From a virus (lineage: Duplodnaviria > Caudoviricetes): a stretch of 64,000 nt of DNA. The notes beneath the pieces were generated by a model, which had not been told where the DNA came from, made no database searches, and worked only from the letters and a program-made list of their open reading frames with translations. The DNA lies in IMG/VR virus record IMGVR_UViG_3300031784_000006; one strand, given 5' to 3'. Positions 3,771-64,000 of this stretch are shown here, one piece after another (position 1 is the stretch's first letter; the number at the start of each line of letters is the position of its first letter). Position numbers and translations under genes: made by a program.

Positions 3771-4175
3771 TTAACCGATAATGGAGTCTCTCCACTCTTC
3801 ACTCATATTCACCATAATTGCTTCTGCTGCTTCTGGGGTTTCAGCATATCCTTCATCAAGTAAATGTGAAAGGATGATGTCGTAGTAATCATAATTTTCA
3901 TTTTTTTGTGCTGACTTCAGTGCTCCCATCATTTTTCTTACTTCTCCAGTTTTCTTGGCAGCACTTTGTTTTAATTTATCTCGGATACCTTTTGGCATAA
4001 ATCCTGATCCAGAAGCACTAATCTCCGTTGATATACTATGAGCTCTTTTTCCAATTTGTCTGCCAATTCTAGTTCTTCTTTCTTTATCTAATGGCATTTT
4101 ACCCTCATCAAGTTGCTGATTTTCAACAACTTCCATATATGCTTCTTGAAGACTACGAAAATCTTGTGCGTCCAT
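3771..4175 (-). CDS. Late hypothetical protein, EAY / EGYA-MSEEW cassette family (copy A)
   Basis: MDAQDFRSLQEAY... and C-terminal LLDEGYAETPEAAEAIMVNMSEEW; TATAAATA at 4196-4203. Confidence 0.85.
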   Translation of the reverse strand: MDAQDFRSLQEAYMEVVENQQLDEGKMPLDKERRTRIGRQIGKRAHSISTEISASGSGFMPKGIRDKLKQSAAKKTGEVRKMMGALKSAQKNENYDYYDIILSHLLDEGYAETPEAAEAIMVNMSEEWRDSIIG

Positions 4176-4213
4176 TTTTACGAATACTTTTTAGGTATTT
4201 ATATTGTTTTGAT

Positions 4214-4420
4214 TTAAAAAGGTAAGTCTCTTCTTTTTACTTTATCTCTCATTGCTCTATATCTTTCATCGTGCCTAACTTCTGCTTCAATATCACCACT
4301 TTGAGATGCTTTCTTTGCCGACTTTTTAGCAGCAGTCATTTGTTTTTTAATTCTATTTTCCTTTTCTCTACTCATTCCTTGGTAGGACATTTCAAAAATA
4401 AACTCCCTAAAAGTTTTCAT
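4214..4420 (-). CDS. Small basic protein with capsid-targeting-like N-terminus
   Basis: MKTFREFIFE start; ATAAATA late promoter upstream. Confidence 0.75.
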   Translation of the reverse strand: MKTFREFIFEMSYQGMSREKENRIKKQMTAAKKSAKKASQSGDIEAEVRHDERYRAMRDKVKRRDLPF

Positions 4421-4435
4421 TTGTATTGATTATTT

Positions 4436-4954
4436 TTAGGTATTTATGATAGTCCAACCTTTTGTATTCTTACTTTTCTTTCCCAAAACCGCATCATAAG
4501 TTATTCCTATTTCCTTACAGAACTTCTTAACACCACCTTCTATAATATGTTTTTTACCCTCTGGAGAAATAAAGATATATTTTTTTGCTTTTGGATTATT
4601 TTTACCAGAAACTTTTAATGAGGTTTTCTTTTTACTTTCTTCACTATGTTTTCTACCACTAAATCCCTTCGTTTTTTGTCCTCCTGGTTTTCCTTCTCCA
4701 CCAAGATTTTGATTTAATAAAACTCCTCCATCACATTCTCTTTTCCAGAGTGCTATGTGTTTTATTTCAAGTTCTATTGCTTCTTCTTTAGTTAATCCAG
4801 ATTTTACAATCCACCTTCTTTCTCTTGATGGTAATAAATTTGCTCCATTACTCCTCAAATGTTTTGCGTGTATTCTTCTTGGTTTTCCATAACCAACATA
4901 AAAGGGAGAACTAAAGTCCTCCCTTAAGTAATAGTAAAGAATATAGTTATTCAT
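4436..4954 (-). mobile_element. Free-standing GIY-YIG homing endonuclease (Seg-like) with NUMOD3 motif
   Basis: YILYY...FYVGYG, ELEIKHI, LLN motif, GRKHSEESKKK; inserted immediately downstream of nrdB. Confidence 0.8.
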
Positions 4955-32847: not shown

Positions 32848-33300
32848 TTATGCAGGTGGAAGTTTTACTGGATTTGGACCCGTCATTTTGTTATAAATTT
32901 TTTGTGCTCTAGGGTCTTTTAATGTTTGTCCCTTATTCCAAGTTTTGTTATCAGATGGACTATCTGTTGGACCACCAGTCATTTGCTCAACAATACTCTG
33001 TCTCCACTCTTCACTCATATTTGCCATAATAGCAAGAGCTGCCTTGTTGGTATCAGCATATCCTTCGGCAACTAGGTATTCTAACAGATAATCAAAGAGA
33101 TCAACCTCTTCTTCCACAGGAGATGATGGTTTATTAACTCTTAGTCCAGGAACTTGTTTTGCTTTCTTTTCAGTTTCAAAATTTGGAATTCTATCATTTT
33201 GTGTAGTAGTAGCAACTTTAACTTCATCAAGTTTTTCTTTAACTTGTGAGTACATAGAAGCATATGCTTCCATTATCTCTCTAACTTCTTTTGCTTTCAT
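32848..33300 (-). CDS. Late hypothetical protein, EAY / EGYA-MSEEW cassette family (copy C)
   Basis: MKAKEVREIMEAY..., LLEYLVAEGYADTNKAALAIMANMSEEW; TATAAATA at 33321-33328. Confidence 0.85.
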   Translation of the reverse strand: MKAKEVREIMEAYASMYSQVKEKLDEVKVATTTQNDRIPNFETEKKAKQVPGLRVNKPSSPVEEEVDLFDYLLEYLVAEGYADTNKAALAIMANMSEEWRQSIVEQMTGGPTDSPSDNKTWNKGQTLKDPRAQKIYNKMTGPNPVKLPPA

Positions 33301-33323
33301 TTTTACAAAGACTTTTTAGATAT

Positions 33324-33461
33324 TTATAAAAAAGAAGAACCGCCCCGTGAGAGGCGGTTCTTGAGTGCTTGGCGTCGTGCTTTTGCTTGTCGGAGTGCTT
33401 GCGGTTTCAGTTTCCGCTTCTGCTCCTTCTTAGAGTGGTGTTGCCAGTTTGGGACTTGCAT
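33324..33461 (-). CDS. Small basic protein (45 aa); 3' end overlaps a terminator
   Basis: MQVPNWQHHSKKEQKRKLKPQALRQAKARRQALKNRL...; hairpin GAACCGCC TCTCACG GGGCGGTTC at its end. Confidence 0.6.
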   Translation of the reverse strand: MQVPNWQHHSKKEQKRKLKPQALRQAKARRQALKNRLSRGGSSFL

Positions 33462-43388: not shown

Positions 43389-43939
43389 TAGGCATCTCCT
43401 GAAATTTGTACTTGTTGGTAATACAGAGTTCCTGCACCTACACCGTATGCAGAAACTTTATTTGAATTAATTACAGTAGCATCTGTTGAAGAGAATGCTG
43501 TGACAATTCCACTTGAATTATAATTAACAGTCATTCGTGTCTGATAGTAACCACCTACCCCAGAAGAAATATCTACAGATAAAACTTGCTGGTGTGTGAA
43601 GTTGTAATATGATTGTCCTGTTGCAGTTAGTGTAACATAATCACCAACACCAAAAGGAACTTGAGTTCCTTCTGGAACTGTAACAATTGTTGTTGTGCCG
43701 GTAGTTATGCCTACAACTTTATTTGAAGCTTTTGTTAAACCTAGAGTGGCAGATTCTCCAGATGAAACATAGTAATCTGCAGAAGTTGCTGATGGATTTC
43801 CGCCTACAGAAATATGCGCTGCACCACCGACTGCAACCACTCTCAAAACACTAGATTGTACCGAAAAGGCAGATGATGTTGTTGCAGCACCTGCAGTAAA
43901 TGTAAATGAGGAACCCGCCCCAACTGGTCTATGAGCCAT
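43388..43939 (-). CDS. Putative virion structural protein
   Basis: Ser/Thr/Gly-rich beta protein within the head module. Confidence 0.7.
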   Translation of the reverse strand: MAHRPVGAGSSFTFTAGAATTSSAFSVQSSVLRVVAVGGAAHISVGGNPSATSADYYVSSGESATLGLTKASNKVVGITTGTTTIVTVPEGTQVPFGVGDYVTLTATGQSYYNFTHQQVLSVDISSGVGGYYQTRMTVNYNSSGIVTAFSSTDATVINSNKVSAYGVGAGTLYYQQVQISGDA

Positions 43940-43993
43940 TATTTTTATAGTACACTTTTAGTTATTTATTATTTAATCAAGTTATGATTTAAA

Positions 43994-52356: not shown

Positions 52357-54204
52357 TTAGTTACAATTCCAACGGCGAAGTGCTTTATTAATATTGCTAT
52401 CTGGATCTCTTGCAGTTTCTGCAGAAGTTAGTTTTGATTTCATTCCTTTCATTCGACGACAAAATGAAGCACGACGTTTCGCTCTTTTTCCTTCTGGATT
52501 TTTTTCAGTTACTGCAGTTTGAAGTTTTGAACCGGGGTTCTCTCTACGATATGCTTTAACTGCCGCTGAACTTAATCCATCAGTTTTATCTTTACGGTTG
52601 ACTGATTGCCAATCTTCACCAATTTCAACTTCTTCTCCCATTGTCTTTACATAATTCTTATTTGAACCTAACTTTGCGGAACTGCCGCCCTGGGAACTAA
52701 AAGTTTGAATAAGTGGTTGTCCTGGTTGAATTTCAGAAACCGAATGGTATACGACTATTGAACCTGGATAAACTTTTTGAATCTCATCGTTGATTTCTTT
52801 TCTGGAAGGTGTCTTTACTTGTGGGAAGAACATCTTGAGAGAATAATATTTTCCTCTCCATGAAAGAGTTACCGCGATGACATTTCCAGTCTGTGCTTGC
52901 AGTCTTGTTGCTTCGCTCATTTGAGATTTAAAACCTTTGATTGGTTCTGGTTTGATTACGTCAACTACTTCCGCAAAAGTATTTCCGTTTAAGTCTTCTA
53001 TTGTTTGTTCTGGCACACAATTTGGAACTGTTTTTTTGCCCTTTTTCTTCATTCCAACTTGCTTATATCCGGACCAACACGCCTCATCAACTTCACTTTC
53101 TCCGCCATCAAGATAGTCTGCTGCAGTATCAATATAGTCTGCTGCTTTAGTGATTTTTGACTGAACCCATGCCTCTAAATTACCTTCACCTTTTCCAACT
53201 TTTGCTCGCAATCTTTTTACGGCATTTTCGATAGTTTGAAGTTCGCCGCGAACCATTGAATATTCTTCATCTTTTGATTCGGGTATAGTAGGCATAGTTA
53301 TATTATAGTCTTTTTTTCCAGAAACCACTTCTGAAGGTAATGAAAACATATCCCAGTATTTTTGTCCGTATTTACACTCATCTCTAGACTCAACTTTTTC
53401 GCATTTAGGACAATATCTTCCTGGATTTTCTCTAATTGGTCCATCCCACTCATAATTTAAAGCATCCGTACTTTCTGATTTAGTTCCCCAGTTGTCAGCA
53501 CCAACCTTACGGCATTTAACCAAAGCACCTGATGCATACGCACTTGGCCAAACACTATATCTAGACTTTACTTTATGGTAGCAAGCATCTTTAGTTCCGC
53601 TACCTTTACCTTTTTTATCTTTTGCTTCTTGTATATCCATTTCTTCTTTGATTTTCTTTCTAGGTGAATCTGTAGAAACATAAGTTGGTTTTGCAGCACC
53701 TGATTTCTCTTGTTGACCAGAATCTGCTACCTTTTTTCTTCTTGATGCGGAACGTCTTTCTGCAGGAGTCATGCTTGCTCTTTTAGAAGAAGACACACAT
53801 TTTGGAACTCCTTCTCCCTGTTCATCACTTGCACATGTTCCACCTGTAACTACATTTACCCAACCAGATTTACCATCCTTTGATTTTGATTTACCAAACC
53901 AATCGCGAAGACCCTCTTCTTTTACAGTATCTTCATATGCAATTCTTTTTTTGCTATGTTCAATTTCTCCTTTTTGCTTAGCAATCAATTTCCTTGACCA
54001 AGCGCCAACATTAATATCTTTTGGATTTTCATCTGGCATTCTCTTTTTGGGATTGTCGAAAACATCGACATCACCATCAGCATCACGATCAACATATTGA
54101 ACAGCAGCGTGATGCACTAACTGTTTAAGATCAAGATTAGGATCTAACTGATGTTGTTTTGCCTTTAAATGTGGCGTTTTGTGGGAAAATTTTGGATATT
54201 TCAT
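52357..54204 (-). CDS. Modular basic protein with Cys-containing mini-domains, inserted between gp16 and gp17
   Basis: 615 aa; modules such as GLRDWF, SAYASGALVKCR, EACWSGY, FCRRMKG..RRWNC. Confidence 0.85.
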   Translation of the reverse strand: MKYPKFSHKTPHLKAKQHQLDPNLDLKQLVHHAAVQYVDRDADGDVDVFDNPKKRMPDENPKDINVGAWSRKLIAKQKGEIEHSKKRIAYEDTVKEEGLRDWFGKSKSKDGKSGWVNVVTGGTCASDEQGEGVPKCVSSSKRASMTPAERRSASRRKKVADSGQQEKSGAAKPTYVSTDSPRKKIKEEMDIQEAKDKKGKGSGTKDACYHKVKSRYSVWPSAYASGALVKCRKVGADNWGTKSESTDALNYEWDGPIRENPGRYCPKCEKVESRDECKYGQKYWDMFSLPSEVVSGKKDYNITMPTIPESKDEEYSMVRGELQTIENAVKRLRAKVGKGEGNLEAWVQSKITKAADYIDTAADYLDGGESEVDEACWSGYKQVGMKKKGKKTVPNCVPEQTIEDLNGNTFAEVVDVIKPEPIKGFKSQMSEATRLQAQTGNVIAVTLSWRGKYYSLKMFFPQVKTPSRKEINDEIQKVYPGSIVVYHSVSEIQPGQPLIQTFSSQGGSSAKLGSNKNYVKTMGEEVEIGEDWQSVNRKDKTDGLSSAAVKAYRRENPGSKLQTAVTEKNPEGKRAKRRASFCRRMKGMKSKLTSAETARDPDSNINKALRRWNCN

Positions 54205-57241: not shown

Positions 57242-58096
57242 TTATCCAATCATATCAAATGGGGGAAGTTCGTATGTATTCGACATTTTTTCCATCAAAA
57301 TATCAATTTCTCTTTGGGCATCTTCATACATCTGTCTTCCATTCAATTCGACTCCACCTGGGAGCTTAACGCCAGTAAATTTCATCATATTTTGACCCCA
57401 CTGTTTTTTAATTAATGAGGTTAGGTATGGTTTTAAGAAAGAATCATTCCAAACTCTTGAATAATCATTTGGATCTAAAGTTGAGTAACAATCAATAATG
57501 ATAAACTCACCTTCTCTAACCGATGACCAATCAATATCTAAATATAATCTATCTTGCCTTTTGTTGAATCTTATTTGCTTCTGAGTGTTTAGTAAAAAAT
57601 CCAAGTCTTCCAAGTAAGTTTTAACCATTGCATAACTTAATAACTCAACTGCACCCCAATAATAAACATCGTTTAAAAATAATTGATATTTCACACTAAA
57701 CATATTGTTAGTTATAGTGTTTGCACCATCAAAAGTAAAAATTTTATTAATACCAATTACATTGGGTGGAACTTGAAGATAATTGCTATTTTCATAATAA
57801 TTGAAAGTTGCTGAAGTTCCCGAAATATTTGTTGTTACACTAGTGCTTGCTATACCAACACCATTTTCTATTCCACCAGAGTGACCTGCCCTTCCTCTAT
57901 CTATGTCATTTTGAGTTAATTTGTATTTGTAAAAAGTTGGATATACTCCATCAAAATGTCTTTCTTGAAAAAACTGAATTGCATCATCAACTAAATCTTC
58001 AATTTGCTCATCAGCAACATTAATCTCTAAAACTGGCGCTCCCAGTTTTCTTTTACAATAATCTATCAATTCTTGTCTGGTAGATGGTTGCGCCAT
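57242..58096 (-). CDS. gp13: Neck protein
   Basis: RKLGAPVLEINV, KKQWGQNMMKF.GVKLPGGVELNG. Confidence 0.96.
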   Translation of the reverse strand: MAQPSTRQELIDYCKRKLGAPVLEINVADEQIEDLVDDAIQFFQERHFDGVYPTFYKYKLTQNDIDRGRAGHSGGIENGVGIASTSVTTNISGTSATFNYYENSNYLQVPPNVIGINKIFTFDGANTITNNMFSVKYQLFLNDVYYWGAVELLSYAMVKTYLEDLDFLLNTQKQIRFNKRQDRLYLDIDWSSVREGEFIIIDCYSTLDPNDYSRVWNDSFLKPYLTSLIKKQWGQNMMKFTGVKLPGGVELNGRQMYEDAQREIDILMEKMSNTYELPPFDMIG

Positions 58097-58128
58097 TATT
58101 CAATCTTTTTTAAATATTTATGAATGTC

Positions 58129-58511: not shown

Positions 58512-61019
58512 TCATGCTAAACAAATAACTCTTAAGTCTTTTAATCTTGGTGGATACGCCTGATTTGTTCCCGCACCAATTAATTTAATACTAAGATATT
58601 TAAATGCTGGAAGATTTGAAATAGTAAATTCATGATCTGTAAAAGACAGTTCATTACTTTTGAATGCTAAAGATTTACTTTTTTCTATCTTATTATCGGA
58701 AGTTCCATCACTTAATGCTCTATACAAATCTGGGTCATCTGCACTGGATTCATTCGAATAACCAGGGAAAGGATAGTAAATCAATTCTTGATTTGGATCA
58801 TTTTTTATTGCATATAAGCATCTTAAATCACTATATTCATTAATATATGCAGCTACAATTACCTTTATAGAGGTTGCTGGAATTTCTAATTGTATTGGGT
58901 TTGTTGCATAAACAAAGGATGATGGGTCATCTTTTAAAGTGGAAACTCTATCATCTGCGGCATAATTTTGGATGGGATTATTAATTCTGTTGGTAACAAA
59001 AATCATCGATGCCCTATCTAAGTCAACTACCGGCGAAATAAACCTATTAGTAGTTTCCAAAAACATGTTCACTGTTAATGATTTATTGCCAAAGAATTCA
59101 TTATTGGATGATAAAAATTGCTGCTCATTTTCTTTTGAGCATATCAATCTTGGAGATTCAAAATAGTTAGTTTTATTTAAGTTTATTTCGTCAAATCCCT
59201 GATCATAAAAAGAAAATTCCAAACCATCTACACTTGTTCCAGATACAGTTCTTACTCTTGCAGAAATATCAGTTCCGTTGAGTGTTAATGTCTGAATAAC
59301 TGGTTTTGCTGATTCAAATTGTATATTTTGAGTCGCTGTAATTTTATCTCCACCGGTTATTTTTGTTTCATTAATGTATAACTTTGGAAAGGATGTACCA
59401 ACACTTCTATCTACTTGTCCTTGAGGTAATGGACTCGTATTTCCTCCCGATGAAGTGTCAACTTTAATATGATAATAATCAAAGTCTATGGAATCTGTAA
59501 TTGTAGAATCCTGTAGAGTATGTGTTTTATTGATTCTTCTTAAAGAAATTCCATTGAGTTCATACTTATAAACGGGAGCTCCTGCAGAATATGTGAAATT
59601 TCTAGTTTGATCTATTTGTCTTGTTATTCCTGTAAGAGTGTTTCCTGAAATCCCCTGATATGCAATAATTTCTCTACCAATTCGTATATAACCCGGATTA
59701 GTGCTACTAATTCCTACGTTTTCAAATGTATCAAATTTTGCTACAGAATCAACAACAATATTTCCCGTTGATGATGCACTATAATTTTGAGTTAACTTAA
59801 CTGGTTTGATATCCGGCAATACATCTCTTATTACGACATTATTTTCTTCGGCGTGCATTGCATGGTTCCTGTGGTTTACCTTTATATGCAATCCATCAGT
59901 TTCAGTATCAATTTCTCCATCTACAATCAAAACACCTCCGCCATTTATATCTGTTCGGATACCTGAACTATTGATATACTGTAGAGTATTTCCAATTCCA
60001 GTTACAAAGTCTCCCTGAACATTATCTAAAATTAATTCATTTATTCCAAAAAGATTTTGTACAGACATTAGTAAATTAATACCAATATCATCATTACCTA
60101 ACTGCGATATTGTGACAATATCTCCATCACTATAACCAGTTCCGCCACTGTTTATTGTTGCTGCTACTGCAACCCCATCAGTAATTGTTACATCAACTGT
60201 CCCATTCTTACCCTCACCGGTGATACTGGTTAATGCTATTCCCGTATATGTTAGACTACCCGATGATGGTGTGTATCCTATTCCGGGATTTACGATTGTT
60301 AAACTACCTGTAGCAATACCCGCAGAATCAACATAATTGCCAGAAGCATTACTTCCCTGCTGTACTATTGTATTTCCTAATTTTAAAATATTGTCTTGAA
60401 TTGTTGTACCTAAACCAACACGAATTCTCTTAGAATTAAATTCTAAGGGATTGGGTACTAATTCTGCAATCTGATTATTCGCTACGGTTAAATCTGGATT
60501 ATAAAAATTAAAATCACCAAAAGAAGATGTAAAGTTTGCTCTGTAAAGTGTAAACTTTAAATCTTCAAATCCACTTTCTGTCCAAGTTTCTCCATTTTGA
60601 GATTTAAATAATCCACCAGATAGTGGTTGCTTTGTTACCAATAATTGCTTTGATTCTAACCCAGCAAGTGTGGTAACATCTACTTCATTTAATCTAGAAA
60701 CCCAAAGACTATATGTTGGTAAGTTTGCCATAACAACTATGGCATGAAATTTTTTACCACTTAAGTATACTGGAGATGGAAAAACAACCCTCGTCGGTAA
60801 AGATGCATCATCCGATACTTGTATTTGTTTTGGATTTAATACAACCTCACTGAATGGATATACTTTTGGGGTAGGAACTCCCAATTCCATTGGTCTCAGT
60901 TGAACTGCTACTGGCAAAGACTTATCTTTTGCTGAAAAATATAAATCTACCGAAGTTATAAAAACTCCAGAGTCGTTATCAATATAAAAGGATTGAGCTA
61001 ATGGATTTACAACTTTCAT
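58512..61019 (-). CDS. DUF4815/VrlC-like virion protein, C-terminal segment
   Basis: Starts at NPLAQSF...FITSVDLYF, includes LFKSQNG.TW, EDLKFTLYRANF, SPVVD. Confidence 0.8.
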   Translation of the reverse strand: MKVVNPLAQSFYIDNDSGVFITSVDLYFSAKDKSLPVAVQLRPMELGVPTPKVYPFSEVVLNPKQIQVSDDASLPTRVVFPSPVYLSGKKFHAIVVMANLPTYSLWVSRLNEVDVTTLAGLESKQLLVTKQPLSGGLFKSQNGETWTESGFEDLKFTLYRANFTSSFGDFNFYNPDLTVANNQIAELVPNPLEFNSKRIRVGLGTTIQDNILKLGNTIVQQGSNASGNYVDSAGIATGSLTIVNPGIGYTPSSGSLTYTGIALTSITGEGKNGTVDVTITDGVAVAATINSGGTGYSDGDIVTISQLGNDDIGINLLMSVQNLFGINELILDNVQGDFVTGIGNTLQYINSSGIRTDINGGGVLIVDGEIDTETDGLHIKVNHRNHAMHAEENNVVIRDVLPDIKPVKLTQNYSASSTGNIVVDSVAKFDTFENVGISSTNPGYIRIGREIIAYQGISGNTLTGITRQIDQTRNFTYSAGAPVYKYELNGISLRRINKTHTLQDSTITDSIDFDYYHIKVDTSSGGNTSPLPQGQVDRSVGTSFPKLYINETKITGGDKITATQNIQFESAKPVIQTLTLNGTDISARVRTVSGTSVDGLEFSFYDQGFDEINLNKTNYFESPRLICSKENEQQFLSSNNEFFGNKSLTVNMFLETTNRFISPVVDLDRASMIFVTNRINNPIQNYAADDRVSTLKDDPSSFVYATNPIQLEIPATSIKVIVAAYINEYSDLRCLYAIKNDPNQELIYYPFPGYSNESSADDPDLYRALSDGTSDNKIEKSKSLAFKSNELSFTDHEFTISNLPAFKYLSIKLIGAGTNQAYPPRLKDLRVICLA

Positions 61020-61036
61020 TTTATTGAGACTTTTTA

Positions 61037-61291
61037 CTATTTATTTTCCTTTAATAGATCTATTTCTAATTTTAACTCTTTAACAGCTTCTATTAAAACC
61101 GGGATTAACTGTATATAGTCCACGGAAAAATATCCAGAGTCATCCACCATTACCATCTCAGGAAATTCTCTTTGAATTTCCTGAGCTATTACTCCATAGT
61201 CAAATCCACTTTTTCCACTCAAATCTTTCATTTTATCGTTCCACTCATAATATTTTCCATTTATATTTGATAATCTATCAAGATATTTCAT
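61037..61291 (-). CDS. Peptidase S74 intramolecular chaperone domain, C-terminal part, free-standing
   Basis: YEW...GVIAQEI...PEMV...VDYIQLIPVLIEAVKEL; lacks SDxRLK. Confidence 0.8.
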   Translation of the reverse strand: MKYLDRLSNINGKYYEWNDKMKDLSGKSGFDYGVIAQEIQREFPEMVMVDDSGYFSVDYIQLIPVLIEAVKELKLEIDLLKENK

Positions 61292-61294
61292 TTT

Positions 61295-62998
61295 TTAAAA
61301 GTTTATATTCATTAATCTTTGTAATGCATTATTTATAGAAATAATATTCTTCTTAAGGCGTATATCGCTCATTTTTCCGCCGCCGCCACCGCCACCACCG
61401 CCGCCACCACCGCCGCCGCCCATTCCACCACCACCACCACCGCCGCCGCCACCGCCACCACCGCCGCCACCACCGCCGCCGCCCATTCCACCACCACCAC
61501 CACCGCCGCCACCACCGCCGCCACCGCCACCGCCACCACCGCCGCCACCACCGCCGCCACCACCGCCGCCGCCGCCACCACCGCCGCCACCCATTCCACC
61601 GCCGCCACCACCGCCGCCAGAGGGAGCGCCACCGCCACCACCGCCCATTGGGGCACTACCGCCACCACCGCCGCCACCACCGCCGCCGCCGCCACCACCG
61701 CCGCCGCCCATTTGGCCTGCAGTTCCTCCACCAACTCTACTTCCTTCAACTGCCACTTTTGCCAAATTATTTCCTGGATTTGTTACTGTTTTTTGTCCAT
61801 GCTTAATATTGCCAGTTCCAACTTGTATATTTGCCGCCGATGCAAAATCACTGTTGTTTATCTTGTTAACAATTCTATTTTGAGCCTTTGCGCTCATATC
61901 TTTATCAATATTTTTAATTTCCTTCTTAGAAAGTCCTGCATCCTTAGCTAATTCTTTCAATCTACCAGCACCACCATCATAAAGTTGCTTTGTGCCATAG
62001 TTGTAGTAAATTGTTGTTGGTGCTGGTTTGGGTGTTGGTGTTGGTGTTGGTGTTGGTGTTGGTGTTGGTGTTGGTGTTGGTCCTGGTGTTGGTCCTGGTG
62101 TTGGTCCTGGTGTTGGTCCTGGTCCCGGTGTTGGAACTGGTGTTGGGTAATCTATTGGGAAATCAATAAATACATCTTCGTTTCCAGGTCCACCTATGAC
62201 ATTGATTACTTGAGTAATATTGGTTTCTACTCGAACTGGTCTAGTGACTATGACATTTTCTTGTACGGTATTTATTTTACCTTCGGCATGATAATTTTCT
62301 TCTGCTGCCGTTGTAAAAGTTCCAACAACTAGAGAATTGACTCTACTACTTGTAAGTCTGAAAGCTCTAACACCCGCTTCAAATGTGGGATTTGCATCTA
62401 CATTTGGGTTTGGAATAAAAAATGATCCAATAACAACCCCATCATCATTTGTCACTAGTCTTAAATCGGTGACTGTTGCCTCCGCTTTGGTTGTTGACCC
62501 CCTAAGTTTCATTCCAACAGCAATATAACCTAAAAAATCCGACGCCTTATCGGATAAACTATATGTGTCAACATTCAAAATGGTTGAAGTTGCTGAATAG
62601 TTAACAGGAATTGTTTGATTTTGATTGTATGGATTAATATCAAAAATATCTTCTGGATTTGTATAATCGCCATACTTATGATTTTGTACAGCAACTCTAA
62701 ATCTGCAACTTGGTAATTGTGGATTATCAAAAGAACCAACAACAGTTTCTCCGACCTGGAAAACTCCAGATGTCATTCTAATCTCAATTAGTTTTGGAAC
62801 AACAAATTTGCTAACATCAACTCCACCAAAAAAAGGATAAACTCTAGTAAGAGGTTTCATCCTTTTTGCAGTAAATTCAATGTTTCTAGACCTCATATAA
62901 GGTAATACTTTAGATGCTAGAACTCTATCGCCAAAAGATACCGTTTTTGACTGCGGTTCTTTTGGTGCGGTCATTGATGGTGGAGCTAAAGTAGTCAT
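61295..62998 (-). CDS. DUF4815/VrlC-like virion protein, middle segment with Pro-Thr and poly-Gly tail and S74 N-terminus
   Basis: [21 protein letters not shown]; ends [14 protein letters not shown]... Confidence 0.8.
61376..61711 (-). repeat. About 110-codon GGN (poly-Gly with interspersed Met) trinucleotide tract
   Basis: (CCA/CCG)n on the plus strand; very GC-rich in an AT-rich genome. Confidence 0.95.
62031..62147 (-). repeat. Pro-Thr / Pro-Gly-Pro-Thr tandem repeats
   Basis: (GGTGTT)n and (GGTCCTGGTGTT)n on the plus strand. Confidence 0.95.
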
Positions 62999-63079
62999 TT
63001 TTTTCCTTATTTTATATTGTTGATATTTTTATTGAATTGTCCTATCTAAGTTATTATTTAGGACAAAACTGCATCAATG

Positions 63080-64000
63080 TTAAGAACGTTTTCCCATCCT
63101 TAAATTAGTTCCTGGTATTTTTGGAGCCCTATTTTGACCCATACCTGCCCCCATAATAGAGCCTGTATTATTTGTGGGTTTACTTAAGATATTTGGATCT
63201 TTAATTCTTGGTTTACCCTTGTCATCTCGTTTTACCTGACCTGTCCTAATATCTAAGAGTTTATCAACAGTTCCCATTTTACCTTTAAGGACCTGCTTAA
63301 CATATTTGTTATTGTCTTTTATTAGTTGACCTTCTTTTTTAGTTCTATCTTCTGGTCTGGTTGCTGGCAATGTTTTCATCGGTGGCATTACAAAAGAACT
63401 ATTTGCCCCATCTTTTGGTATTCTTGGAGCAACGGAGTGTGAACCCATGCCCATTCCACCACCGCCCATTCCACCACCGCCGCCACCGCCCATTCCACCA
63501 CCGCCGCCACCGCCACCCATGTTGGCGTTGATACCACCTTTAAGTTTTGAAGGAAGAGCGCAAGCTGAAACACCTGGACTTGATACTTTAGGTTTATTAA
63601 CTTTTGGAACAGTTTTTGGTGGAGCAGAACTAGCGGCAGTTTGAGCTGCATTAGGTGTTGAAGTGGTTGTTGCAGTGGGTTTAGTTTCTGCTTTTGGTGC
63701 ATTTGTTGTAGGTGGAGACCAAGTTTCATGAGAATTCCATGTCACTGGCGCTAAACCTGTCTGTTGATCATTTTGAGTAGTTCTTGTTTGTAAACTTGTC
63801 TCAGTAAATGCATCTCCAATTTCTACAGTGTTTGGTTTTACTCTTACCTGATCGACCCAAACATCAGATGATGGATATAGTTCTATAGTTCCTGTATAGA
63901 ACTCTTCTGCAAATGGATTGACATTAACAGATCTAGTTGCATATGGTTGATTAATTAATCTTACTTCATTGTAGTCTAAAGTAATAAGTTGGCCAGTTCT
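63080..64000 (-). CDS. DUF4815/VrlC-like virion protein, N-terminal segment (partial, continues beyond the window)
   Basis: Frame open from 64000: RTGQLITLDY...QPYATRSVNVNPF...GTIELYPSSDVWVD, then low-complexity Met-Gly tail; the track ORF starts at an internal GTG. Confidence 0.8.
   Translation of the reverse strand, partial: RTGQLITLDYNEVRLINQPYATRSVNVNPFAEEFYTGTIELYPSSDVWVDQVRVKPNTVEIGDAFTETSLQTRTTQNDQQTGLAPVTWNSHETWSPPTTNAPKAETKPTATTTSTPNAAQTAASSAPPKTVPKVNKPKVSSPGVSACALPSKLKGGINANMGGGGGGGGMGGGGGGGMGGGGMGMGSHSVAPRIPKDGANSSFVMPPMKTLPATRPEDRTKKEGQLIKDNNKYVKQVLKGKMGTVDKLLDIRTGQVKRDDKGKPRIKDPNILSKPTNNTGSIMGAGMGQNRAPKIPGTNLRMGKRS
63444..63520 (-). repeat. Met-poly-Gly tract
   Basis: [26 protein letters not shown]. 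Confidence 0.9.

Follow-up and report, generated by a model that had tools for sequence, protein, structure and literature searches.

Few large proteins of double-layered myovirus baseplates are as conserved, and as poorly understood, as the DUF4815 protein VrlC, whose gene is a core marker of cyano- and pelagimyophages. In the cyanophages S-SM2 (SSM2_099, 2519 residues) and S-SCSM1 (gp19, 2603 residues), VrlC is the product of a single gene located between gp8 and gp13. The S-SCSM1 homologue is annotated as a virion protein, and presence in the virion baseplate has been reported for the VrlC/DUF4815 homologues of PhiM12 and A511 (PMC4621102). Here we describe the corresponding locus in IMG/VR virus record IMGVR_UViG_3300031784_000006, in which this protein is divided among separate genes. 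The stretch of DNA that was analyzed, 64,000 nucleotides in length and referred to as the window, is part of an uncultured freshwater T4-like myovirus (Caudoviricetes). From position 58512 to the end of the window, four consecutive open reading frames (ORFs) on the minus strand encode three structural pieces, segA, segB, and segC, and a small chaperone ORF, ORF84. Instead of the one polypeptide that is typical of the VrlC family, the window thus contains fragments of a family member on three ORFs, an arrangement seen both in contigs and in relatives. We consider it probable that the VrlC/DUF4815 protein has undergone two successive, inherited fissions at inter-domain linkers and that its pieces co-assemble with their tails displayed, a two-piece Peptidase_S74 (S74) chaperone trimerizing the tails of segB.

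Similar to VrlC of T4-like cyanophages and pelagimyophages, the window locus presents the same conserved blocks in the same order and at the same place, between gp8 (baseplate wedge) and gp13/gp14, with 42–50% identity over the aligned parts. In a tblastn comparison, residues 1247–1339, 1417–1662, and 1699–2519 of S-SM2 VrlC fall in order on segA, segB, and segC at 46–48% identity (46% for segC), and the window pieces are collinear with the single chain. The block QPYATRSVNVNPF...VWVD lies at 63851–63949 in segA, which is open at its 5′ end, PYMRSRNI lies in segB, and NPLAQSF...TSVDLYF lies at the start of segC. A previous sequence-only reading of this stretch had placed these blocks consecutively in three ORFs and had described them as usually one polypeptide in T4-like cyanophages, and both statements agree with the coordinates, the collinear alignment, and the S-SM2 and S-SCSM1 genes. 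Its division of the protein into three genes holds for the conserved blocks and leaves out a fourth ORF, the 84-residue S74 body at 61037–61291. Within the window, segA contains the end of Pfam DUF4815 (PF16075 positions 517–569 of 570; E value of 3.2e-9; 36.1 bits, with a cut-off of 30); the N-terminal part of segA is known from relatives only, and the complete segA of one of these, L011, has the DUF4815 domain. Downstream of segC, a gp13-like gene stands beside gp14, which was identified by a T4_neck-protein match (E value of 2e-28), and gp8 is found upstream of the locus in L003, L011, and S-SM2, the window itself stopping before gp8. The single-chain and divided forms differ at the break points, where linkers of 77 and 36 residues in S-SM2 compare with a segA tail of ~210 residues plus an 81-nucleotide spacer, and a segB tail of ~300 residues plus the 84-residue ORF, in the window.

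A structural counterpart is provided by the 1152-residue DUF4815 chain of Staphylococcus phage 812 (PDB 9euf), which by gene order and the literature is most likely gp119, the trimeric tripod protein of the double-layered baseplate of Herelleviridae and a counterpart by homology of gp106 in A511 (PMC13433997; PMC4621102). As in the window family, the gene for this chain follows a gp8-like arm-segment gene. The end of DUF4815 (residues 573–609), a weak PYMRSRN-like block (671–711), and the PLAQSF domain (787–954) occur in the same order as in the window pieces, and residues 3–166 of segC match residues 790–946 of the chain with an E value of 6e-20. The main differences are that the phage 812 protein is one chain and far shorter, that the similarity ends after the first 165 residues of segC, and that the chain has no S74, poly-Gly, or Pro/Thr (PT) tails. 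Mapped onto this chain, the two fissions correspond to regions ~610–670 and ~780–787.

Relatives of the locus are found at the protein level only: a megablast against 50,697 GenBank phage records gave zero matches, and the tails are absent from all of these records, in which matches end at the body. The IMG/VR contig L003 (81% identity) contains the same four ORFs, with a complete segA of 1533 residues, and L013 (a JGI contig, 55%) and P0011 (a Logan contig, 46%) contain segB, an S74 ORF of 84/88 residues, and segC. In the ENA contigs L011 and L012, segA (1407 residues), segB (366 residues), and segC (834 residues) are present without S74, and in L005 and L006 segA and segB are fused (1842 residues) and segC is separate. 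An IMG/VR scan with an alignment of segB bodies yielded 80 further loci, which were classified by script, and a maximum-likelihood tree was calculated with IQ-TREE from the segB body and the segC N terminus, with 78 distinct rows. A branch with 97/88 support separates all 30 rows that are split between segB and segC from the 48 unsplit rows, and the split states require one change on the tree compared to a shuffled mean of 24. Numerous stand-alone segB homologues of 343–572 residues were found in a protein search, with the common N terminus MTSxxPP...SFGD; because the MTSxxPP start is common to split members, a single origin is favored. Every split relative also begins segC with MK[VL][VI][DN]PLAQ. 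The segB|segC break is therefore apparently a clade-wide trait of metagenomic phages with a single origin. Splits between segA and segB are confined to a subclade with 100/99 support comprising nine rows, which also holds three forms with segA and segB fused (an unresolved three-way fork), and the tree places the segA|segB break as the younger of the two, arising within this subclade. The fission proposed earlier for this genome is real and is not peculiar to it: two or three parts are normal within its own clade, 30 of the 78 distinct relatives sharing the segB|segC break, and the 48 unsplit rows and the cultured cyanophages have one chain.

The positions of the breaks coincide with variable regions of the unsplit proteins. 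Gaps at junction 2 measure 12–237 residues in unsplit forms, some of which carry (RP)n or poly-Pro inserts, and the linkers at both break points vary in length, which bears out the earlier suggestion that the breaks fall at insertion loops. The breaks lie in hypervariable linkers where unsplit relatives hold low-complexity or domain insertions. In L061, an unsplit sister of the split clade, a 237-residue insertion is present at the segB/segC linker (L061:6859–7638; also in L063), and it contains two DUF4214-like repeats with a Pfam E value of 1.2e-4, just below the cut-off; L061 is a plausible pre-fission stage. In the unsplit VrlC gene of the cultured cyanophage S-SCSM1 (L002), whose product is annotated as a virion protein, the junction-2 linker is extended by an (RP)n/(PQ)n insert of ~100 residues. 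Together the forms document a series from loop expansion to a first and then a second fission. A further variant is the 374-residue P0025 on a 177-kb ENA contig, which ends in ...NGMILLLKHLVF, reading like DPLAQSF in a shifted frame; this contig may have a frameshift instead of a clean split at the segB/segC junction.

In the intact S74 intramolecular chaperones, such as those of K1F endoNF, GA-1 gp12, T5 pb1, and MyRF, the domain is one piece that is fused to its substrate. The window pieces, S74N on segB and S74C, which is ORF84, share with these domains the SDxxLK start, the Ser–Lys spacing, the GVIAQE body, the coiled-coil helix, and the C-terminal place on a virion protein. The main differences are that the domain in the window is cut after profile position ~24 and carried by two genes, that positions 16–24 are duplicated, and that a poly-Gly stretch occupies the upstream position of the triple beta-helix or fiber of known systems. 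ORF84 matches PF13884 at positions 16–57 (E value of 6.7e-8; 33.2 bits, with a cut-off of 22), lacking the Ser–Lys start and ending in the C-terminal coiled-coil helix, an element that drives trimerization in the S74 family (PMC8326128). The SDxxxK dyad, Ser544/Lys549, is located on segB and not on ORF84, and its spacing equals that of the S911–K916 dyad of endoNF and the S587–K592 dyad of MyRF (PMC8326128). The S74N equivalents in L021 and L023 match Pfam Peptidase_S74 positions 1–24/25 (E values of 7e-4 and 1.4e-3), and across five lineages the residues S, D, L, K, N, and I do not vary. Profile positions 16–24 occur on both pieces, as ALQRLMNIN in segB and YLDRLSNIN in ORF84. Chaperone and substrate do not share one chain: a stop follows 24 residues after the Ser, and the body starts from an ATG of its own in a separate ORF. 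The cut lies 22–25 residues after the Ser in six loci (the window, L003, L004, L013, L021, and L023) and also in the P0011 contig; S74N and S74C always occur together in the six loci, and neither occurs alone in ~85 other loci. The ORF84 homologues form 32 clusters of 64–93 residues with 65–100% identity, and the exact ORF84 protein is found on 16 contigs. When 1.84 billion representatives were searched with the S74 profile, 60,560 relatives were obtained; among the best 150, nearly all are the C-terminal end of a long protein, and only a handful are stand-alone S74 forms of 64–118 residues. In L023, ~440 nucleotides separate the S74 body ORF from the segC start (L023:8133–8572), leaving room for another small gene that is not in the window. 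Two close relatives of the ORF84 profile, P0156 (789 residues) and P0154 (1028 residues), have S74 in mid-protein, besides or instead of the C-terminal position, and such internal domains would cut the chain after translation.

A complex of three ORF84 chains and three copies of the last 36 segB residues was modeled with a score of 0.84, as compared to 0.27 for the best of three controls. Of 80 solved complexes, 58 attain this mark, as do 2 of 110 mismatched pairs, and the pass may reflect likeness to solved intact S74 domains instead of providing independent evidence. At least 74% of contacts recur between runs, with a partner predicted local distance difference test (pLDDT) score of at least 72. 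In the model, GVIAQE is faced by the Ser-Asp start and KYYEW is paired with the stretch after this start, while the helix is packed against the C-terminal helix of a different copy. The model supports binding of S74N and ORF84 to each other.

The tails that precede the breaks were described in the sequence-only reading as rich in Pro/Thr and Met-Gly. The description is apt, but the tails are more than low-complexity leftovers, since they include a conserved, predicted folded module and the split S74 chaperone. The segA tail is absent from unsplit relatives and from relatives with segA and segB fused, the nearest of which have a linker of ~0–1 residues; the final 70 residues of segA are conserved with L003, with a ratio of nonsynonymous to synonymous substitution rates (dN/dS) of 0.18. 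In segB, a fast-evolving PT-repeat linker leads into a helical tail module whose conservation extends to at least 15 homologues (Y332, N333, L339, L347, N381, and S383 are invariant) and which is the sole confidently modeled part of segB (AlphaFold2 pLDDT of 63–87, helical). No family or fold match to the module was obtained with Pfam, the ESM Atlas feature search, or structure comparison: in a VIA-align comparison of the segB model with 48,161 chains nothing scored above a Z of 5.1, and the module gave only generic helical matches (Z < 5), a result that does not indicate a new fold. Pfam searches of the tails of the window and six relatives at E ≤ 1 returned the S74 start, the sub-threshold DUF4214 match in L061, and noise only. 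Elsewhere in the split clade, modules of at least three further classes take the place of the helical module, and a low-complexity, often basic end follows in each case. In the window as in L003, the poly-Gly tract and the S74 start share one reading frame, and the corresponding place in relatives is taken by Pro/Ala/Ser/Met/Gly repeats. Both kinds of sequence would favor extended conformations of the polyproline II/polyglycine II (PPII/PGII) type. The tract, with its 102 Gly residues, is an unusual sequence for a virion and appears to be under constraint. All pieces and tail modules are under purifying selection: dN/dS is 0.09 for ORF84, 0.10 for segC, and 0.18 for S74N, and with the segB body and its tail module included the values stay within 0.09–0.18. 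They are rough values, since the synonymous divergence (dS) of the window from L003 is saturated (>1).

From these observations an assembly can be proposed in which segA, segB, and segC would still come together in one trimeric, tripod-like peripheral baseplate complex, like the single chain of phage 812 and A511. Fission would give segA and segB free C termini on which new tails sit, and the segB tail would consist of an extended PT spacer, a small helical module, and a 115-residue poly-Gly stretch of the PPII/PGII type. The last 24 residues of segB would supply the Ser544–Lys549 dyad, the first strand, and the first helix, and ORF84 would supply the S74 body and the trimerizing coiled coil. 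In the modeled 3+3 chain assembly, the three segB tail ends would be trimerized and probably cleaved before Ser544. Separately encoded tail-fiber chaperones (gp57A and gp38) and split fiber genes (gp34–37) are known from T4. Similar to the window locus, the T4 fiber system builds a virion appendage from several gene products with a protein acting in trans; there is no homology and the folds are unrelated, and the T4 fiber pieces are joined end to end, whereas the window pieces are fragments of one globular multi-domain protein. A more far-reaching proposal, which we hold tentatively and which falls short of being probable, is that the "intramolecular" S74 chaperone-protease has here become a two-component system, in which a free 84-residue protein docks on three 24-residue dyad tags, trimerizes poly-Gly/PPII tethers emanating from a fragmented tripod baseplate protein, and self-cleaves, the fission of a giant protein having enabled such appendages. 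In that case, the chemistry of S74 could work in trans, and ~100 residues of polyglycine could be a structural element of a virion.

Both features are variations of known kinds, since the baseplate protein that underwent fission and the chaperone fold that occurs in two pieces were each known before. In a literature search of incomplete coverage, which is weak evidence of novelty, neither a split VrlC nor a two-gene or trans-acting S74 was found to be described. A clade in which the protein is cut at two defined linkers shows where its domains are naturally bounded, to the benefit of expression and structural studies, and marker-gene and gene-calling pipelines will mis-score such phages as having truncated or partial genes. 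If the split S74 works as proposed, it would be a natural case of an autoproteolytic chaperone acting between chains, useful for understanding trimer nucleation and possibly as a two-part trimerization and cleavage tag.

It is hardly credible that the breaks are assembly or sequencing artifacts or mark a recent pseudogene, with the true gene being one ORF and its stops being errors or fresh inactivating mutations. The breaks do adjoin long low-complexity repeats that are difficult to assemble, and short-k contigs stop at 61372–61712, 62011–62134, and 63461–63517, in the poly-Gly, PT, and segA Met/Gly tracts. However, the stretch is found in runs of 14 studies, mainly of lake and freshwater metagenomes, and Logan contigs from four runs in four studies match 60684–61371 and 62135–63488 with 0 differences and 0 gaps, bridging all three junctions, including the intervals 61020–61036, 61292–61297, and 62999–63079 at which a check of read support had been proposed. 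The same breaks are present in relatives at 46–83% identity, in which the architecture with its new starts, ribosome-binding sites, and promoters is retained down to 46%; dN/dS is ~0.1 for all pieces; and junction 1, with its 81-nucleotide spacer, is in the segA frame but contains three in-frame stops. With identical independent contigs, the same breaks in relatives, and purifying selection on each piece, genuine gene fission is well supported, as the sequence-only reading had argued. Programmed recoding, in which readthrough or frameshifting would rejoin the pieces, is only marginally more credible than an artifact. In the window, segB and ORF84 are in the same frame, separated by TAA AAA, and the segB stop and the ORF84 ATG fall within an A-rich, slippery-looking run, TTTTAAAAAATG. 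The frames of the two genes nevertheless differ in five of the six loci, and in the P0011 contig as well as in L003, L013, L021, and L023, with spacings ranging from a 17-nucleotide overlap to 11 nucleotides; therefore neither readthrough nor frameshifting is conserved. The ORF84 ATG and the duplicated helix at the ORF84 start are conserved, a fusion product would contain profile positions 16–24 twice, and junction 3 is out of frame, as junction 1 is interrupted by its three stops. Since the junctions vary in frame and spacing from lineage to lineage, separate polypeptides appear to be made. Inteins, homing endonucleases, and mobile-element insertions were also considered as the cause of the breaks and were rejected, as no such domains and no extra ORFs besides ORF84 are present. 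At 63479–63493, in the segA Met/Gly tract, contigs from other runs carry deletions of 6 or 1+2 nucleotides, which are in-frame length variants and are possibly a population polymorphism of the tract.

Two further explanations accept the fission and bear on the tails and the chaperone. The tails could be neutral spacers, with the split S74 a decaying remnant of a captured tail-fiber 3′ end, ORF84 dispensable, and neither assembly nor cleavage occurring in trans. About 24 of the 30 split relatives lack S74 and have quite different tails, the PT linker evolves fast (dN/dS of 0.56), and the tail module matched no known fold or family. We regard this explanation as rather improbable, as it does not account for S74N and S74C being kept together with an identical split point in lineages that are only ~57–60% identical in the body, for the invariance of Ser, Asp, Lys, GVIAQE, and EFPE (dN/dS of 0.09–0.18), for the conservation of the tail module (dN/dS of 0.125), or for the presence of the exact ORF84 protein on 16 contigs. 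A better contender, though still an unlikely one, concerns history and not function: S74 would not be ancestral, and a cassette comprising the S74N end, the stop, and the S74C gene would spread horizontally by recombination between the low-complexity tails and the conserved segC starts of co-infecting relatives. Such spread would be consistent with the occurrence of S74 in three parts of the tree that lie apart from each other (L023, L021, and the window group), behind three different classes of tail module. S74C identities to the window are 83, 74, 67, and 62% in L003, L013, L021, and L023, in the same order as the body identities, and since the two rank alike, vertical descent with losses fits, although only five sequences are compared.

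Several points weigh against an inherited fission followed by co-assembly and chaperoned trimerization as the full account. Because many split relatives, ~24 of 30, are without S74, the chaperone is not required for the split protein to work. The 9euf chain was identified as the tripod protein from gene order and the A511 literature and not from the entry itself. AlphaFold2 with a 15-row alignment modeled segB with a mean pLDDT of 43.8 and left the body unmodeled, and the breaks are placed in three dimensions by sequence mapping to the phage 812 chain only. The poly-Gly and PT tract lengths are those of the window's assembly, as short-k contigs break there, and the dN/dS values carry the dS saturation noted above. 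The putative segB promoter has a motif that deviates from ATAAATA and lies 56 nucleotides from the ATG, as compared to 17–44 nucleotides at other sites. Finally, we infer the co-assembly of the pieces, the display of the tails, and the cleavage before Ser544 from sequence.

Table 1. Positions of the genes, tails, junctions, and motifs of the divided VrlC locus in the window
Feature	Position	Strand	Description
segA	63080–64000	−	C-terminal 306 residues in window; gene continues past window end
segA tail	63083–63721	−	~210 residues after conserved block QPYATRSVNVNPF..VWVD
segA P/T-rich stretch	63545–63721	−	
segA Met/Gly tract	63443–63523	−	
segA basic Lys-rich end	63083–63442	−	
Junction 1 (segA stop to segB ATG)	62999–63079	−	81-nucleotide spacer; CTAAATA in 8-bp hairpin; AAGGA ribosome-binding site
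segB	61295–62998	−	567 residues
segB body	62213–62998 (residues ~1–262)	−	48% identity to S-SM2 VrlC 1417–1662; dN/dS 0.12
segB PT-repeat linker	62012–62146 (residues 285–329)	−	Fast-evolving, dN/dS 0.56
segB helical tail module	61784–62011 (residues 330–405; 76 residues)	−	dN/dS 0.125 vs L003
segB poly-Gly tract	61373–61717 (residues 428–542)	−	115 residues: 102 Gly, 5 Met
S74N	61298–61369 (segB residues 544–567, last 24)	−	Carries Ser544 and Lys549
TATAAATA (perfect)	61330–61337	−	Within segB 3′ coding sequence, 38 nucleotides upstream of ORF84 ATG
ORF84 (S74C)	61037–61291	−	84 residues; between segB and segC
Junction 3 (ORF84 to segC)	61020–61044	−	ATAAATA 61038–61044 overlapping ORF84 stop, then leader GTAAAAAGTCTCAATAAAATG
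segC	58512–61019	−	835 residues; N terminus MKVVNPLAQSF

In the window, the T4-type late promoter motif ATAAATA has 32 copies on the coding strand as compared to one on the opposite strand. A gene start follows within 60 nucleotides for 23 of these 32 copies, and the combination of ATAAATA, 10–30 nucleotides, and an ATG was observed 22 times as compared to 9.0 ± 3.1 expected. Upstream of segC, ATAAATA lies 18 nucleotides before the ATG in the window and 18–35 nucleotides before it across the window, L003, L013, L006, and L011; the motif is conserved whether it is in coding sequence, overlapping the ORF84 stop, or in a spacer. Its conservation indicates that segC has its own T4-type late promoter. 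The segC leader, GTAAAAAGTCTCAATAAAATG, resembles other late leaders of the window, for example, those at 33327 and 4202, in agreement with the likeness to a cassette-family leader pointed out before. A similar leader of ~20 nucleotides (ATAAATA-N-CTAAAAAGTNTTNGTAAAAATG) is found at 4173–4202, 4418–4447, 33298–33327, 43937–43969, 58094–58121, and 61017–61044, and this sharing suggests a conserved late 5′ untranslated region element beyond the promoter. The case for segB is weaker. CTAAATA lies 56 nucleotides before its ATG, with TAAATA at 63055–63060 inside an inverted repeat of GTCCTA (63059–63064) and TAGGAC (63039–63044), exactly as previously noted, and the corresponding place has CATAAATA in L003 and TATAAATA in L015; in L011 and L016, segA and segB overlap or lie 4 nucleotides apart, with a Shine-Dalgarno sequence and no spacer motif. 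The proposal that segB and segC both have late promoters of their own therefore stands for segC, where ATAAATA is conserved in five lineages, and is weaker for segB, which has CTAAATA only, a motif absent where the genes of relatives overlap. The TATAAATA motif before ORF84 is conserved at the nucleotide level in L003 and L013, and it overlaps conserved Ile-Asn codons, so that protein constraint is an equally possible cause. The GTCCTA/TAGGAC hairpin at junction 1 is not significantly stable (z-score of −1.37), has no T-run, and gave no terminator call, and a scan for sigma-70 promoters and terminators found no excess over shuffled sequences.

Every gene in the window is on the minus strand. 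The genes include gp23, scaffold, portal, sheath, and terminase, and the gp13/gp14 neck genes follow directly downstream of the split locus. Between the terminase and gp15-like genes, a 615-residue ORF at 52357–54204 has as its sole match a C-terminal DUF6321, with an E value of 3.7e-13.

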